From the IMG/VR virus record IMGVR_UViG_3300032214_001486, positions 1 to 64,000 of that record: a stretch of DNA of 64,000 nt; one strand, written 5' to 3'. This DNA comes from a virus. Below are positions 11,100 through 17,490 of this stretch, piece after piece. Positions within the stretch are counted from its first letter, which is position 1; each line of letters begins with the position of its first letter. The position numbers and the translations under genes are program-made. The notes under the pieces were generated by a model, which saw nothing but the letters and a program-made list of their open reading frames with translations, was not told where the DNA came from and made no database searches.

Positions 11100-11392
11100 A
11101 AGCCTTGGTCCCGTGCGGGGTACGGTCCCAAGGTCCACCCATACACAAAAAGAAGAACACAAAACACAATGCGTTTATCGGTCGAGGCCGCCCAATAGGG
11201 CGGGTTACTTCCCCCTGCCGCCTCGCCACGAAGGCACAAGCGGACCTGATCAACCCGCGTGGAAGGACATAATGCTGCTGGATCGAGCAGCCCCCTTACG
11301 GTAACCGGCGACCGATAGAGCCGGCGGTAATCGGCACCCGAAGCGCCGAAAAAGGATTGGCCCACCTTGGCCTTACAGGTCAAACGGGCTAT
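11100..11392 (+). ncRNA. Candidate structured ncRNA A (unassigned)
   Basis: No convincing ORF; several hairpins; ends in the CCCACC-hairpin-AACGGG module. Confidence 0.5.
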
Positions 11393-11395
11393 TGT

Positions 11396-11467
11396 GGCCG
11401 CATAGCTCAGCGGGAGAGCGGCGCCCTTACAAGGCGCGGGTCGGGGGTTCGATCCCCTCTGCGGCTA
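11396..11467 (+). tRNA. tRNA-Val(TAC)
   Basis: GCGCC-CTTACAA-GGCGC with a complete cloverleaf. Confidence 0.93.
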
Positions 11468-11508
11468 CTTCCTACGCTTCCTTCGCTTCCTTCGCTTCCT
11501 ACGCTTCT
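11468..11508. repeat. 9-bp tandem repeat CTTCCT(A/T)CG x4
   Basis: Seen directly after tRNA-Val. Confidence 0.8.
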
Positions 11509-11509
11509 C

Positions 11510-11705
11510 TCCGGGTGTACGCACCCGCCCCCGGTAGCTGGATCTCGGTGCTTCACCGAATAACTTGGCGTTTCGCCAGTTAATGCCCAACCGCGTCGAG
11601 CCACAAAGCCTTGCGGCTCCCGCGCTGCGCGCTCCCCGCGGTTTCCTGCGGAATATAGCAGCTTCCGATGTAGAGAACCGACCCCCGGCGGATTACCGGG
11701 GGGAT
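11510..11705 (+). ncRNA. Candidate structured ncRNA B (unassigned)
   Basis: Serial hairpins CGGGTG/CACCCG, TCGGTG/CACCGA, TGGCG/CGCCA, CCCCCGG/CCGGGGG; no ORF. Confidence 0.45.
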
Positions 11706-11707
11706 AT

Positions 11708-11783
11708 TCCCTGGTAGCTCAGTTGGTAGAGCAAGCGGCTGTTAACCGCTGTGTCGCAGGTTCGATCCCTGCCCAGGGAGCCA
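11708..11783 (+). tRNA. tRNA-Asn(GTT)
   Basis: AGCGG-CTGTTAA-CCGCT; encoded CCA. Confidence 0.95.
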
Positions 11784-11792
11784 TTTTGTATT

Positions 11793-11865
11793 GTCCCCGT
11801 AGCTCAGTGGATAGAGCAACCGCTTCCTAAGCGGTGGGTCGCAAGTTCGATCCTTGCCGGGGATA
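11793..11865 (+). tRNA. tRNA-Arg(CCT)
   Basis: ACCGC-TTCCTAA-GCGGT. Confidence 0.93.
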
Positions 11866-11904
11866 CCCCAGGCTCTTAATTACTCTAACTCCGAGCACCT
11901 AACA

Positions 11905-12872
11905 ATGCTGACAGCCAAACAGATCGCAAACATCGGGGCGCAGACCCAAAAAGAGTTGGAAGCAGAAATCCAGCGATGCCTGGAGTACCTGCCCAAAAGC
12001 AAGACGAAGGCATACTGGGAAAAGAGCATGGACGACCGTCTGCTCAAAGCCTTAGACGAGGCGGGCGGGCGGCCTGGAGACCTGTTAGAGAATTTCTTAG
12101 TCGTGTCGGGCCGCGAAGTCGGTTTTGGTATGCTCTTTGAGGATCTGAGGGAGCTTGGGCTGGTGCATTTAGGCCGACCCGGCGTTGACCCGCCCTCCGT
12201 TTCTGATCGGTCTTATTGGATCGCTCACCGTGTGTTCCTCAAATGGCTGGAGGGATACAAACAAGAGTCGGGCCTAAACATCACCGTGACCACAAGGCGG
12301 ACAGATAACTTTCACCCGCTCCTTGAAACGAGCGTTGTGACGATTAAGCTGTACCCAATCTGAGGTAGATATGAGCCTTCGCATGACAGTCAAAGAGGGG
12401 GAAACCCCGAAACAGGCGATGCTCCGCTACGCTGCCGAGTACGGCGGCTTAGAAGATGAAGTCGAATGGGAATACCAAGAGAGCCTAAAGCAAGGGCTGA
12501 GCGAGCAAGCCGCAGCCTGGGCCGCCTTGTATGAGTGGGATCTGCTGGACTACGTTGACGAAGCGCCGGAAGCCGCGGAAGTCCCCGCTGTTTCCGTTGA
12601 ACCCCAGGCTGGATAGGGAGGCACCCATGCCGCACGACCCAAACGACCCGAGGCACCGCACCGGGTTCGACAGCTACCCCGAGGATTATGACTCGGCGGG
12701 CAATCTGACCAAGGAAGGCCGCGAGGCGCGCCGGTACTCTGGTGGCGGCAGCGGCGGGCTCCCGAGGAGCATCCACGACACCTACACGGGGCACATCGGG
12801 GGCGACCTTGGCGGGCGTGGTCCGGCCAGTCACTACCACCCGGACGGCACCAAGAAGTCCGGCCTGGACTAA
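11905..12872 (+). CDS. Three small hypothetical genes (11905-12363, 12371-12616, 12627-12872)
   Basis: Tandem ORFs; GAGG/GGAGG RBS before the 2nd and 3rd. Confidence 0.6.
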
Positions 12873-12962
12873 GCCCCGGCCGTACCGGGCCCCGGCCCAA
12901 GATATTGTGATCTTCCCGAGGCACAAAACCCGGCTGCGCCTATTCTGGTAAAGCCGAGCTAA

Positions 12963-15285: not shown

Positions 15286-16077
15286 ATGCACCCGTTGGAA
15301 CGAATTGGGGTAAATGTCCACATTAAGCCCTGGATGGATGCGGAGGCAGAGCGAGCCTGCCGGGACTTTTGGGGACAACGGGACTACGTTGGTGTGCGTT
15401 TTGAGCCCCCCTTGACGCCCGAGGAATTGCGAGATTTCCCGGTTTCGGGGTTTCCTGGGCGGCCTTATGTGTACTCCCACGCCAGCCCTCCGGCTTGGCG
15501 GTGGGACTGCACGGGCCCAAAGCATCGGCTCTCTGACGAAATCCAAGATCCGGCGCAATACGCCGACGTGTACTACCACAACCTAAGCTCCGCCCTGACC
15601 CTGGGGTTAAACAGCTTTGCGCTTAGCTCTGAGGGCGGGGCCCTGTTTGACTGGACCGGGGTTCAAGCCGCCGTGCAGGAGATTTTGACGATCTTGGGGC
15701 GCAGGGCGGTAGAGTTGTATATCTACGCCTCCGCGGGTTTTGCCGCCGAGAACGTCGATGCTGAGGGCAAGCCTGTTATGGAACCCAAGACGCATAGGGT
15801 GCTTTGCAGGGGGTACTCTGCCCCAAATTGCGAAACGGTGACCATCATGGAAACAGCCAACAGCCCAAAATCCAGCGACGACCCCGACAACGTGCTCGTG
15901 TTTGAGCTTCACTTCTGGGAACAGTGGAAGGCCGGGGGCGAAGATATGATGGAAGGCTTAGGGACATACCCGAAGCGGGCCTCAGCCTTCTTTCTCGGTT
16001 CCTTCACCGACACCGAGCAGGTACGGGGGCCATTGGAGGGTGGAACCCTTTTGCCCTTCCCGCCCGCGGCTGAATAA
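15286..16077 (+). CDS. Hypothetical protein
   Basis: GGAG RBS before ATG 15286. Confidence 0.65.
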   Translation: MHPLERIGVNVHIKPWMDAEAERACRDFWGQRDYVGVRFEPPLTPEELRDFPVSGFPGRPYVYSHASPPAWRWDCTGPKHRLSDEIQDPAQYADVYYHNLSSALTLGLNSFALSSEGGALFDWTGVQAAVQEILTILGRRAVELYIYASAGFAAENVDAEGKPVMEPKTHRVLCRGYSAPNCETVTIMETANSPKSSDDPDNVLVFELHFWEQWKAGGEDMMEGLGTYPKRASAFFLGSFTDTEQVRGPLEGGTLLPFPPAAE

Positions 16078-16085
16078 CGAATTAC

Positions 16086-16158
16086 GGGGCGGTAGCTCAG
16101 CGGTCAGAGCACCCGGCTCATAACCGGAGTGTCGTGGGTTCAATCCCCACCCGCCCTA
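16086..16158 (+). tRNA. tRNA with CAT anticodon (elongator Met or Ile2)
   Basis: CCGG-CTCATAA-CCGG; lacks initiator features. Confidence 0.9.
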
Positions 16159-16169
16159 CTCTCCTTTTG

Positions 16170-16370
16170 CGGGGCAAGTGAACGGGGTAGACTCCAAGGA
16201 TTTATTGAATTCTTGCGACGGCTCTGGCCCGTCGAAACGGCTGCGTGTCTCTGTTCACAGTTGACGCAATCTGCGCGCAGCACGGTCAATACGGCATGTT
16301 CCGTCACCTTTTAGTCGTCAGGGATTAGACAGAAAGGGTCAATCCCCAAAAGGGACGCCTTCACCCCCCA
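16170..16370 (+). ncRNA. Candidate structured ncRNA G (unassigned)
   Basis: GTGAACGGGG/CTCTGTTCAC closing stem around CAAGGATTT/GAATTCTTG and CGACGG/CCGTCG hairpins. Confidence 0.5.
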
Positions 16371-16385
16371 GCCAAAGAGGCAAAC

Positions 16386-16679
16386 ATGAGCAAGGAAAGC
16401 CGTCAAAAGAAGGAAGTACGCCGCGCCAAGAAGGCCCTGCGCCACGCGGTCAAGCGGAAGCGCAGCGAGTATATCCAGGCCCGGATCAAGCTGCACCTCG
16501 ATTGTGTGGCCGTCGGCAAGCCGCCGCCGGGTTCCTCGGAGCGGACGGCGAACCGCCGCTTGTCGCAAGAGCAGCAGCATCGGGCCGCGGCGATCAAGGT
16601 CGCGGCGGCACCCGCCGTCGCCGGCCCCAGCCCCGGCGGGGTCAAGATCGACCTGACGCAAGCGCAGTCGGCCCGATAG
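16386..16679 (+). CDS. Small basic hypothetical protein
   Basis: GAGG RBS; K/R-rich. Confidence 0.6.
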   Translation: MSKESRQKKEVRRAKKALRHAVKRKRSEYIQARIKLHLDCVAVGKPPPGSSERTANRRLSQEQQHRAAAIKVAAAPAVAGPSPGGVKIDLTQAQSAR

Positions 16680-16745
16680 GCCCGGACAGTAGCTCAGCGG
16701 CAGGCGGGGTACAGCCCTCCCCGAGAACAAAAGGGCTTTCCCTTT

Positions 16746-16821
16746 GGGATGGTAGCTCAGTCGGTAGAGCACCGGCCTTTTAAGCCGAGGGTCGTGGGTT
16801 CGAGCCCCACCCATCCCACCA
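16746..16821 (+). tRNA. tRNA-Lys(TTT)
   Basis: CGGC-CTTTTAA-GCCG; encoded CCA. Confidence 0.94.
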
Positions 16822-16869
16822 CTCCGCACCGCCGTTTCGCACCACTCCGCACCGCCATTTCGCACCACT
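16819..16869. repeat. 23-bp tandem duplication
   Basis: CCACTCCGCACCGCC(G/A)TTTCGCA x2 plus CCACT. Confidence 0.8.
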
Positions 16870-16880
16870 AAGGGGAGTCC

Positions 16881-17273
16881 ATGAGCCACGTTTTTGACGT
16901 GATGCTGGAAGGTATGTACGCTTACCCGGAAGAAACCTTCCGCTATTGGTCGAACACCAACCCGGACGAAATTTACAGGGTTTTGCAGGCCAACGGCTAT
17001 TGGCAAAAGTTCTACGAAGATGCCCTTCAGGTTATGCCGCGTGAGCGGGATTGGTTCTACGCGCTCAAAGACCGCAATCCTTGGTTCGACACAGACAAGG
17101 CCAAAGAATTGATCCGCTCCAAGGATGACTTGTACGTTGAGCGAGACTATATCGAATTCACCTTTCAGGTAGCCAAGGCGTTCATTCCGGGCTTATTGTG
17201 GCTGGACCTTCCGGTAGACACCGTGCCTGTTCTGAATTTCCACGCAAGCCAGCGGCTTACTGACGCTGTTTGA
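16881..17273 (+). CDS. Hypothetical protein
   Basis: GGGGAG RBS. Confidence 0.7.
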   Translation: MSHVFDVMLEGMYAYPEETFRYWSNTNPDEIYRVLQANGYWQKFYEDALQVMPRERDWFYALKDRNPWFDTDKAKELIRSKDDLYVERDYIEFTFQVAKAFIPGLLWLDLPVDTVPVLNFHASQRLTDAV

Positions 17274-17490
17274 CCCCGTACCCGGAGGCCCTATGGGCAG
17301 TTTTAGCTGGCGCCGCGGACACTGAGGTTGTTCTCTCCCCCTCTTGATCTCGGCCGCGCAAGCTACGCGGACGTACTCTCTTGACGGCTAACTGCGTAGG
17401 TCGGCGCCGACCCGCACAGACTCCGCATATTCAGGCCGCACCGTAGGGCGGCAGGCTTTGTCCCCACCTGAGAGCAACGGGGGCTTTTTC
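17274..17490 (+). ncRNA. Candidate structured ncRNA H (unassigned)
   Basis: GCAGTT..AGCTG/CGGCTAACTGC stem; CU-rich loop; ends in the CCCACC module plus a T run. Confidence 0.5.

Follow-up and report, generated by a model that had tools for sequence, protein, structure and literature searches.

An apparently unnamed RNA module of a phage tRNA/tmRNA array recurs in other phages and at phage tmRNA ends

In phage T4, several stable RNAs that are not tRNAs (species 1 and 2, RNA C and RNA D) are encoded between the genes of the tRNA cluster and are freed by tRNA processing. Theta ribozymes, which are minimal HDV-like ribozymes with a nested double-pseudoknot HDV fold, occur mostly in gut phages next to tRNAs, where they lie at the tRNA 3' end with a cleavage site no more than 5 nt away, and have been proposed to act in tRNA maturation (PMC10879173). 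Two-piece tmRNAs end in a hairpin, PK2 (described in PMC3985003), which forms the 3' part of Rfam family RF01849, alpha_tmRNA. We examined a window of 64,000 nucleotides (positions 1 to 64,000 of the 105-kb IMG/VR virus record IMGVR_UViG_3300032214_001486), in which an earlier note had described four non-coding spacers that share a 3' module. The RNAs of this window resemble those of T4 in their location, by description, but their spacer bodies show no sign of conserved structure. The module and theta ribozymes are both small structured RNAs abutting phage tRNA genes; however, the module lies upstream of the tRNAs, and its helices follow a different order.

All four reported copies were confirmed by sequence (Table 1). 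They read GG(C/A)UUN-GCCC-ACC-[variable]-AAC-GGGC and are confined, within the window, to the tRNA/tmRNA array; the GG(C/A)TTN 5' flank, common to 4/4 copies, is absent from the earlier description. The pattern CCCACC-N4-30-ACGGG has eight matches in the window versus 2.9 expected, a number that 0 of 100 shuffles attained, and the reported copies are four of these eight. Covariance model R1 picked exactly the four copies, both in the window and in the whole record, with the next-best score at 15.7 bits, whereas most IMG/VR members score 37-53 bits, compared with 25.5-32.9 bits for the window copies. The latter carry the core 4-bp GCCC/GGGC stem and GGCUU 5' flank. Small deviations are seen in copy A, whose flank reads GGAUU, and in copy H, whose stem is GUCCCC/GGGGGC. 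The fifth stem pair is G.U in A, A:U in E, and an unpaired C.C in F, with H in a different register, and each copy is followed by a U-rich, G-poor tail (TATTGT, TCTTTGT, CCCATTTT, and TTTTTCCGTTTTT). Modules A and E have 15 identical nucleotides in common (GCCCACCTTGGCCTT). The observation that three copies closely precede a tRNA was borne out, with gaps of 5, 8, and 8 nt for A, E, and F, respectively, while module H is not tRNA-adjacent and closes a transcription unit, the next unit starting at the promoter-like site listed for tRNA-Gln.

Table 1. Modules and neighboring features, in window coordinates
Feature	Position	Strand	Basis	Details
Module A	11354..11391	+	R1 32.9 bits; sequence	GGATTG flank; stem (U)GGCCC 11358-11363 with GGGC(UA) 11386-11391; ACC 11364-11366; local hairpin 11367-11383; tail TATTG, then tRNA-Val
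Module E	14196..14235	+	R1 32.3 bits; sequence	GGCTTA flank; stem A-GCCC 14201-14205 with GGGC-T 14230-14234; ACC 14206-14208; 19-nt loop interior; tail CTTTGTAC, then tRNA-Thr
Module F	14555..14594	+	R1 32.2 bits; sequence	GGCTTC flank; stem GCCC 14561-14564 with GGGC 14591-14594; ACC 14565-14567; local hairpin GCGGG-AGGGATA-CCCGC 14570-14586; tail CCCATTTT, then tRNA-Leu
Module H	17454..17497	+	R1 25.5 bits; sequence	GGCTTT flank; stem GTCCCC 17460-17465 with GGGGGC 17479-17484; ACC 17466-17468; 8-nt loop interior; then TTTTTCCGTTTTT
tRNA-Val	11396..11468	+	ARAGORN, Rfam	5 nt 3' of module A
tRNA-Thr	14243..14317	+	ARAGORN, Rfam	8 nt 3' of module E
tRNA-Leu	14603..14685	+	ARAGORN, Rfam	8 nt 3' of module F
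One-piece tmRNA of the window virus	13044..13468	+	ARAGORN, Rfam, covariance model	without module
Spacer A body	11058..11353	+		non-coding, tRNA-Leu to module A; unrelated to other spacers; MFE z = -1.8
Spacer F body	14318..14554	+		tRNA-Thr to module F; unrelated to other spacers; MFE z = +0.1
Indel cassette	13800..14242	+	blastn and alignment of L235 against window	443 nt
Sigma-70-like promoter for tRNA-Gln	17588..17616	+	consensus scan	TTGACA-17-TATCCT
Terminator-like site after module H	17548-17565		consensus scan

Across the phages that carry it, the core comprises a 5-6 bp stem, (U)RGCCC/GGGCY(A), placed after GGCUU, a loop that starts with ACC and ends with (R)AAC, and a U-rich, G-poor tail (per 10 nt, T 4.2 vs. 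2.4 and G 1.1 vs. 2.5). The fifth stem pair, R:Y, which lies outside the search pattern, is GC in 17, AU in 8, GU in 4, and another combination in 6 of 35 sequences, and the observed count of stem double changes was reached by 2/500 shuffles. The loop interior is complementary in most phages to a stretch lying 10-45 nt upstream, frequently at a stop codon or beside one, and the pairing of the two creates an H-type pseudoknot. When 5 nt or more of perfect complementarity between the loop and the upstream region are required, this pairing is present in 16 of 25 distinct sequences versus 5.7 expected (0/5000 shuffles, 0/5000 swaps), with 4/25 in a downstream control; an energy-based test gave a weak signal (mean z = -0.4; swap test 59/2000). 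The earlier note had also held that an inner helix changes sequence while its pairing is kept. This is true of A and F, in which clean local hairpins (TTGGCC/GGTCAA and GCGGG/CCCGC) occupy the helix position of the family pseudoknot, and module A folded alone (-16.6 kcal/mol) contains both helices; the helix is imperfect in E, however, and has just 2 bp in H. Upstream pairing was not found in the window, where E and H have only 4-5-nt candidate partners, and the window copies therefore represent a hairpin-closed variant, similar to L030 and L052. The upstream CCCGT proposed as an alternative partner fared less well, as it occurs at background (259 in 64 kb on both strands, or ∼1 per 490 nt per strand).

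Far from being private to the window genome, the module is a widespread and apparently unnamed phage RNA motif, and the conservation and covariation sought in other phages were both found. A 19-base pattern recovered 59 IMG/VR loci from about 30 distinct, unrelated phage lineages, mostly behind protein genes, after their stop codons, or ending permuted tmRNAs; no separate Rfam family covers it. At 56/59 of these loci, the free position N holds G or A; at 49/59, N and the base following GGGC form a pair; and at 51/59, a purine N is combined with a 5-13-nt loop interior. The same pattern in ∼10 times more bacterial DNA gave background-like matches, with N mostly C or T and pairing in 45/121, which is about chance. 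Adjacency to a tRNA recurs in L007 (3 nt), L009 (4 nt), and L008 (10 nt).

Sequence comparison identifies the module with the closing hairpin of permuted (two-piece) tmRNA genes in phages, and its cognate in alphaproteobacterial tmRNA is the terminal hairpin there (PK2 region). Six phage tmRNA loci, namely L045, L061, L063, L008, L010, and L028, contain the exact GGCUUG-GCCC-ACC...AAC-GGGC core as the hairpin after the tag stop codon, and the Rfam alpha_tmRNA match spans the module in L045 and L010. The 3' ends read at 32 alphaproteobacterial tmRNA loci follow the form GGGGUUC-stem-RCC-nnn-CAACAGAA-stem'-AC(U/C)U, in which the stem covaries freely. When set against these 32 ends and the phage tmRNAs, the module has the RCC...AGAA loop and the GGUUC-like flank of the two-piece tmRNA hairpin, and both elements present (i) a GG(C/U)U(U/C) 5' flank, a G+C-rich stem, and an A-Y-U-U tail; (ii) a loop that opens with RCC and closes with AGAA(C) or (R)AAC; and (iii) a position directly 3' of a stop codon, at the RNA 3' end. 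Phage tmRNAs are intermediates between the alphaproteobacterial ends and the free-standing motif. Cellular tmRNA, however, combines a variable stem with an invariant loop (CAACAGAA), whereas the free-standing motif has a fixed stem and a variable loop interior that finds its pairing partner upstream; moreover, the tmRNAs of isolated Erythrobacter phages are without the ACC. A two-piece tmRNA also has a tRNA-like domain and a tag frame upstream, which the window copies and most IMG/VR copies do not. Indeed, the window spacers, considered as two-piece tmRNAs, contain neither the tRNA-like domain (T-arm, acceptor strands, CCA) nor the tag frame; spacers A, E, F, and H gave no tmRNA_permuted or alpha_tmRNA match in Rfam at E up to 10, and the one-piece tmRNA is the only tmRNA that ARAGORN and Rfam find.

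Within the array, module E lies at the exact right edge of the 443-nt indel cassette, which consists of an orphan ORF (13795-14031; no homologue among 5.8 billion proteins) and a 211-nt non-coding tail that closes with the module. The cassette is missing from strain L235, which is 98-99% identical and in which 11 nt (TCGACGCCAAT) separate tRNA-Glu and tRNA-Thr.

We tentatively take the four copies, at somewhat short of an even chance, to represent a conserved and portable RNA module of phages that would bound and cap RNA units at their 3' ends. The module would mark this end and fold into a compact cap; the end itself would arise through cleavage in the U-rich tail, through RNase P acting at the following tRNA, or through termination where the U-run is long, as for copy H, and the upstream RNA would retain a defined, exonuclease-resistant 3' end. 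Such a defined end is proposed to insulate the downstream tRNA or mRNA from the upstream sequence. Since the module stands directly upstream of a tRNA, RNase P cleavage there would leave it as a 3' handle. In favor of this reading are the places that the motif occupies, namely behind stop codons, ahead of terminators or a long U-run (L012 group, L045), at the close of the unit with copy H, and at the cassette edge, together with the tRNA adjacency in other phages. Like intrinsic terminators and 3' stabilizer hairpins, the module has a G+C-rich stem followed by a U-rich, G-poor tract, and a long U-run follows it in L045, L066, L053, and window copy H; unlike them, it has a conserved loop of 14-30 nt, a pseudoknot, and a mostly weak U-tract, and genes or tRNAs begin 5-9 nt downstream, where a promoter would not fit. 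A consensus scan for intrinsic terminators, defined by a stem no shorter than 5 bp and a 3-8-nt loop followed by five or more T in 8 nt, called none of the window modules, whose loops span 14-30 nt and of which copy H alone has a long T-run. Some observations fit the boundary-and-cap reading poorly. The L012 group has a strong intrinsic terminator 8 nt 3' of the motif, which is thus dispensable there for termination and plain exonuclease protection, and in L011, L020, L026, and L048, an ATG without a Shine-Dalgarno sequence 7-9 nt downstream indicates that the element is no efficient terminator. A single copy per genome, as seen in 5/5 other phage genomes checked, is odd for a general end-stabilizer. 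Further, a simple GC hairpin would do as a cap, so the near-invariant GGCUU, ACC, and (R)AAC imply more specificity than a cap explains; these strongly conserved loop and flank nucleotides suggest a conserved partner or tertiary fold as well.

It is also conceivable, though unlikely, that the module is a tRNA-like punctuation signal or a self-cleaving ribozyme, cut by RNase P, RNase Z, or itself to separate upstream and downstream RNAs. Both ideas draw on the tie of the motif to tRNA/tmRNA clusters (the window, L007, L008, L009, and the six tmRNA loci). In strand topology, the stacked stems and a discriminator-like A would correspond to the acceptor-arm pseudoknot of a tRNA-like structure: the order X-L1-Y-L2-X'-L3-Y'-A-YUU equals the H-type order of the TYMV-type pseudoknot, with an A-C-C/U-type tail after the 3' strand of the second stem. 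An A follows the R:Y pair in 18/35 phage sequences, and ACUU, ACCU, or ACCA follows the hairpin at nearly all alphaproteobacterial ends read. Against this putative likeness, the module has no T-arm equivalent, a stem of just 5-6 bp, no anticodon arm, and mostly no terminal CCA, and is not at a genome 3' end. For a ribozyme speak junction nucleotides about as conserved as those of small ribozymes, a helix connectivity permuted between pseudoknot and local hairpin, as in twister and hammerhead, and a twister-sister hit at 1836-1925 of the same virus, an element separate from the modules. Against it, the topology misfits the HDV-like/theta fold, the sequence is unlike the twister-sister consensus, and, with E up to 10 allowed, neither the modules nor the L012 element matched any Rfam ribozyme family (twister-sister, twister, hammerhead, pistol, hatchet, and HDV-like) or tRNA-like family. 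A translation-linked role, in which the ribosome, as it terminates, would unfold a pseudoknot placed at a stop codon or immediately behind it, and the element would either bring a downstream start codon without a Shine-Dalgarno sequence near enough for re-initiation or dock the 30S subunit, seems distinctly unlikely. In most lineages, the upstream ORF stops about -13 to +20 nt from strand X, tmRNAs place the element alike relative to the tag stop codon, and an ATG follows the stem at 7-9 nt in L046 and L015 in addition to the four loci named above, again with no Shine-Dalgarno sequence; yet tight gene packing could by itself account for these distances, the L012 group has a terminator next rather than a gene, and no ORF end adjoins any window copy, three of which precede tRNAs.

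We consider it very unlikely that the module serves to decoy or dock a putative host factor with an affinity for the 3' domain of tmRNA or for the acceptor ends of tRNAs, such as SmpB, S1, RNase R or another nuclease, or a defense toxin. The sequence-level identity with phage tmRNA ends, the resemblance to the alphaproteobacterial tmRNA hairpin with its invariant loop, the strong conservation of unpaired nucleotides across phages of very different G+C content, and the presence of four copies in one array would suit such a site, but the loop interior, invariant in cellular tmRNA, varies in the free-standing motif, and one copy per genome is the rule. A phage using such a site would put it on abundant RNAs; the decoy or docking reading is the part of the earlier idea that survives. 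Least probable of all is an element acting at the DNA level, be it a promoter of the phage, a mosaic junction, or a site of recombination or attachment (att) such as a copied 3' end of a host tmRNA gene. Integration is known to occur at tmRNA gene ends (PMC11915505), the motif is usually single-copy, it forms a conserved island amid unrelated flanks in the L012 group, and it sits at an indel edge in the window virus. Nevertheless, covariation in the stem and pseudoknot is strand-specific, and the G:U pairs, which would be C.A mismatches on the other strand, count against this reading; likewise, a loop of 5 to 29 nt misfits a promoter of fixed spacing, the near absence of the exact motif from bacterial genomes leaves no host gene to copy, and no integrase was present among the flanking genes tested.

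The interpretation of the earlier note is, in sum, partly supported: a structured, strand-specific RNA-level element does end non-coding stretches directly upstream of tRNAs, while the proposed guide or decoy set with different bodies finds no support in the present data. The spacers are not paralogous, as blastn-short shows that they have only the module and chance-level words in common; the two words GCGGTAATCG and GCCGAAAAAGGA lie close to chance level, with E values of 0.56 and 0.036 when only the spacer set is searched. Nor are the bodies more stable than dinucleotide shuffles, with z = -1.8, +0.4, +0.1, and +1.2. Between the window virus and L235, the spacer F body differs by one substitution and one repeat-unit indel, and the sequence of module F is unchanged.

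The virus record is a 105-kb IMG/VR sequence of ~60% G+C, of which the window is the first 64 kb, and it carries ten tRNA genes and a one-piece tmRNA within 10,974-17,766, all on the + strand and interleaved with small ORFs and non-coding spacers. Four of the spacers (A, E, F, and H) end in a common module, and the sequence bears out the positions of all four copies as the earlier note gave them. The pattern CCCACC-N4-30-ACGGG has 8 matches in the window versus 2.9 expected, a number reached by 0 of 100 shuffles, and four of the 8 are the reported copies. All four also have the 5' flank GG(C/A)TTN. 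Moreover, R1, our covariance model of the phage motif GGCUUR-GCCC-ACC...AAC-GGGC, picks exactly these copies, whether run on the window or on the whole record (32.9, 32.3, 32.2, and 25.5 bits; next best, 15.7). Three copies do lie close to tRNAs, with A ending 5 nt before tRNA-Val, E 8 nt before tRNA-Thr, and F 8 nt before tRNA-Leu, while the elements that follow copy H (listed in the table) indicate that it closes a transcription unit. The variable inner hairpin is clean in A and F, but imperfect in E and negligible in H. A promoter reading of the module (sigma-70 or phage) was rejected, as the loop length ranges from 5 to 29 nt; for the best candidate in copy A, TTGGCC-17-TATTGT, the start would fall inside the tRNA. 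The word GGCTTAGCC(CA) recurs in coding regions of the window, probably by chance or through codon usage.

The bodies of the spacers fared differently from their ends. Pairwise blastn-short of all spacers detects the module alone (15 identical nt common to A and E lie inside it), and the shared words GCGGTAATCG and GCCGAAAAAGGA are chance-level matches in this comparison. Of the earlier interpretation, the common 3' handle is supported and the paralogous guide or decoy family is not. The upstream CCCGT, proposed to pair alternatively, occurs at background frequency. Whole-spacer folding was no better than that of dinucleotide shuffles (z = -1.8, +0.4, +0.1, and +1.2), and the spacers have no match in Rfam, even at E up to 10. 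Hidden permuted tmRNAs were also rejected, since the spacers contain neither a tRNA-like domain nor a tag frame.

The module is one form of a motif found in many phages. A first IMG/VR scan, requiring both the module and a tRNA start, returned three unrelated contigs, in each of which GGYTTN precedes GCCCACC, though the pattern had left that stretch free. A second scan with GGCTTN-GCCCACC-N4-30-AACGGGC yielded 59 loci, comprising 44 non-redundant sequences from ~30 distinct lineages and spanning AT-rich marine to GC-rich contigs. The free base N is G or A in 56 of the 59 loci, is a purine combined with a loop interior of 5-13 nt in 51, and forms a pair with the base following GGGC in 49. Matches to the same pattern in 596 Gb of bacterial genomes have mostly C or T at N and long interiors within coding regions, and N pairs in 45/121, which is the chance rate; the phage hits recur there only as L092, on the contig of L008, and L139, on that of L023. 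In our 35-sequence alignment (A2), the extra stem pair is GC in 17, AU in 8, GU in 4, and other in 6, and the pair next to it is U:A or U:G in 20. Because the phage loci were all pattern-seeded, the GCCC/GGGC stem could not covary in this set. The ten bases after the stem are rich in T (4.2 versus 2.4) and poor in G (1.1 versus 2.5), with the consensus Y-A-Y-U-U. Exactly one copy is present in each of five other virus genomes (51-75 kb in size, one of them 98% complete), and one each in 45 loci, which makes four copies in one array unusual. Rfam, searched at gathering scores and at E up to 10 with the window region, 27 loci, and the L012 element, gave only tRNA, tmRNA, and twister-sister matches and holds no separate family for the motif. 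A text search of the literature with the core sequence found no relevant paper, BLAST of the L011 element against isolated phages gave no match, and a search for relatives through two proteins in IMG/VR returned none.

In most motif members, the loop interior has its complement 10-45 nt upstream, in a segment that directly precedes a small hairpin or a short CCUUGCG-type linker. Denoting this helix X/X' and the GCCC/GGGC stem Y/Y', the strand order X - L1 - Y - ACC nn - X' - (R)AAC - Y' is that of an H-type pseudoknot. The pairing is compensated among members (TGACCA/TGGTCA, GCCAC/GTGGC, GTAGTC/GACTAC, GATCA/TGATC, ATACCA/TGGTAT, CAGCCA/TGGCTG, TTCCC/GGGAA, and, with a G:U pair, GGCCA/TGGTC). 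A perfect complement of at least 5 nt lies upstream in 16/25 distinct sequences versus 5.7 expected, a count reached in 0/5000 shuffles and 0/5000 swaps, and the downstream control gave 4/25. Energy-based pseudoknot tests were weak, and a naive longest-helix test with G:U allowed gave no discrimination. In window copies A and F, as well as in L030 and L052, the X helix is instead closed locally, as a hairpin variant.

A relation to tmRNA emerged from the phage loci themselves. The Rfam alpha_tmRNA match extends to the module end in L045 and L010, and in L008, L028, L061, and L063 a tag frame ending ...AA-stop is followed by the module. In two-piece tmRNAs, PK1 and PK2 are described as flanking the tag frame (PMC3985003), which together with the module at the end of the phage tmRNAs identifies it as their PK2 or terminal hairpin. 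The alpha_tmRNA model matched 119/121 sampled alphaproteobacterial genomes, a tally that is the only use made of G048, one of these genomes, which is flagged unpublished. At the 32 alphaproteobacterial loci whose 3' ends were read, the sequence is GGGGUUC-stem-RCC-nnn-CAACAGAA-stem'-AC(U/C)U, with an invariant loop and free covariation in the stem (GGAGGC, GCAGGU, CCCGCC, GUGGGCC, and others). The phage tmRNAs, with GGCUUG-GCCC-ACC-nnn-nAACAGAAC-GGGC-C-A-CUU/CCA, bridge the cellular and the free-standing phage forms. The 3' region of beta-type tmRNA differs. The four window copies belong to a hairpin-closed variant of a phage motif, the cognate of which in two-piece tmRNA is the terminal pseudoknot hairpin. 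In two isolated Erythrobacter phages, a tRNA array is followed by a permuted tmRNA, at which their records annotate nothing; R1 has no true match in either genome, as the tmRNA ends there are a further hairpin variant. As a lead only, the invariant loop CUGGCAAC(A) of the alphaproteobacterial terminal hairpin (L200-L231) is complementary to GUUGCCAG, which we take to be a conserved 16S rRNA word. In one alphaproteobacterial tmRNA gene (L202), the terminal hairpin is duplicated in tandem.

Elsewhere, the motif lies directly behind the stop codons of varied genes, several of which end in an SSB-like acidic tail; among the neighbors are genes for DNA methyltransferases and one that is helicase-like or nuclease-like, and every copy is on their sense strand. 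It is followed by (i) an ATG 7-9 nt on without a Shine-Dalgarno sequence, (ii) a strong terminator 8 nt on (L012 group), or (iii) a tRNA 3-10 nt on (L007, L009, and L008). The 75-nt element of the L012 group is a conserved island with unrelated flanks on either side. The L007 tRNA, detected by Rfam and missed by ARAGORN, has an anticodon loop, CU-CUA-GG, that suggests an amber suppressor. A metagenome contig of a related strain, L235, matches window 11566-13799 and 14243-16686 at 98-99% identity. Window 13800-14242 (compared with L235 2233-2235) is missing from it, and 11 nt take its place between tRNA-Glu and tRNA-Thr. The missing 443 nt consist of an orphan ORF and a non-coding tail ending in module E and its 8-nt tail. 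On its right side, the indel is bounded by the first base of tRNA-Thr. The 78-aa product of this ORF has no homologue among 5.8 billion proteins. Module F and its spacer hardly differ in L235 and are therefore uninformative on covariation.

The positions of the modules (at cassette, unit, and tmRNA coding-piece ends, after stop codons, and ahead of tRNAs), together with the U-rich tail and the compact double-helix fold, point to a portable 3'-end module, a reading that we hold tentatively, at close to an even balance. RNase P would cut at the tRNAs that modules precede, while the module would set the boundary of an RNA, cap it against 3' exonucleases, and insulate the downstream tRNA or start site. 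Three observations escape this model and leave room for more specific mechanisms: GGCUU, ACC, and (R)AAC are near-invariant, genomes usually carry a single copy, and some phages have a separate terminator a short way downstream. A putative processing signal resembling a tRNA acceptor arm, or a ribozyme, is rather unlikely. A twister-sister self-cleaving ribozyme in the window indicates that this virus uses at least one small ribozyme; the twister-sister consensus is itself unlike the motif, and a theta/HDV-like fold was rejected because its helix order is not that of the module and because theta ribozymes lie on the 3' side of tRNAs.

A bolder version, which we consider distinctly unlikely, would make the motif a new class of compact tRNA-acceptor-arm mimic, common to phages and two-piece tmRNAs and either catalytic or an enzyme substrate; it might serve as punctuation, cut by RNase P/Z or by itself, that separates the RNAs of polycistronic phage transcripts and gives the tmRNA coding piece its 3' end, or as a decoy for host defence toxins attacking tRNA acceptor ends. 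To a putative termination-coupled translation element we give little credence, and a putative decoy or docking site for a factor binding tmRNA or tRNA ends appears more doubtful still. A putative DNA-level site is very improbable, as the G:U pairs and the sense-strand placement of every copy argue for RNA over duplex DNA. An attP copy of a host tmRNA end was rejected, since exact copies of the motif are all but missing from 185,579 bacterial species genomes.

If the portable-module reading is true, a tmRNA piece usually treated as a lineage-specific pseudoknot is a portable RNA module that many unrelated phages use alone, behind genes and before tRNAs. It would constitute a new annotatable phage RNA family that typically has one match in each genome and is absent from Rfam. 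It would also offer a way to study how the long transcripts of phage tRNA arrays, and gene cassettes, are delimited and processed, and a testable clue to the terminal hairpin of alphaproteobacterial tmRNA, which is highly conserved yet unexplained. A specific partner or fold, within reach of experiment, is needed to account for unpaired nucleotides that stay near-invariant in phages of 40-70% G+C.

Coordinates of the module copies and other features (window positions unless a locus is named)
Feature	Position	Strand	Details
Module A	11354-11391	+	
Module E	14196-14235	+	
Module F	14555-14594	+	
Module H	17454-17497	+	
Terminator-like hairpin	17548-17565		after copy H and TTTTTCCGTTTTT; then TTGACA-17-TATCCT promoter for tRNA-Gln
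Twister-sister ribozyme	1836-1925	+	Rfam RF02681, 52.4 bits versus cut-off 34
GGCTTAGCC(CA) recurrences	10141, 37257, 44406	+	weak R1 matches, 12-15 bits
GGCTTAGCC(CA) recurrence	41201	-	weak R1 match, 12-15 bits
Minihelix, spacer A	11103-11137	+	6-bp stem, 2x2 internal loop, 4-bp stem, 7-nt loop; 12 stacked layers; then U-CCA
Imperfect tandem duplication	11299-11348	+	26 nt, 80% matches
Tandem repeat	11082-11105	+	at/just after tRNA-Leu 3' end; unit ACAAGCCT
Tandem repeat	11468-11507	+	at/just after tRNA-Val 3' end; unit CTTCCTACG
Tandem repeat	14315-14331	+	at/just after tRNA-Thr 3' end; unit CTCTGTAT
Tandem repeat	16817-16869	+	at/just after tRNA-Lys 3' end; unit a 23-mer
Permuted tmRNA, phage vB_EliS-L02	L233 2474-2882 (OL955261.1)		ends array of at least 19 tRNA genes in stretch examined
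Permuted tmRNA, phage XM05	L232 about 1750-2120 (PV416404.1)		ends array of at least 11 tRNA genes in stretch examined
tmRNA gene with duplicated terminal hairpin	L202 1459-1539	-	RCC...CAACAGAA loop
tRNA, candidate amber suppressor	L007 3388-3457	-	3 nt after motif; Rfam 50.9 bits

Further small features lie in the spacers. The minihelix of spacer A resembles a tRNA acceptor/T-arm minihelix with a 3' NCCA, and the imperfect duplication is directly upstream of module A. Among the tandem repeats, the CTCTGTAT array is shorter by one unit in L235, the 98%-identical strain.
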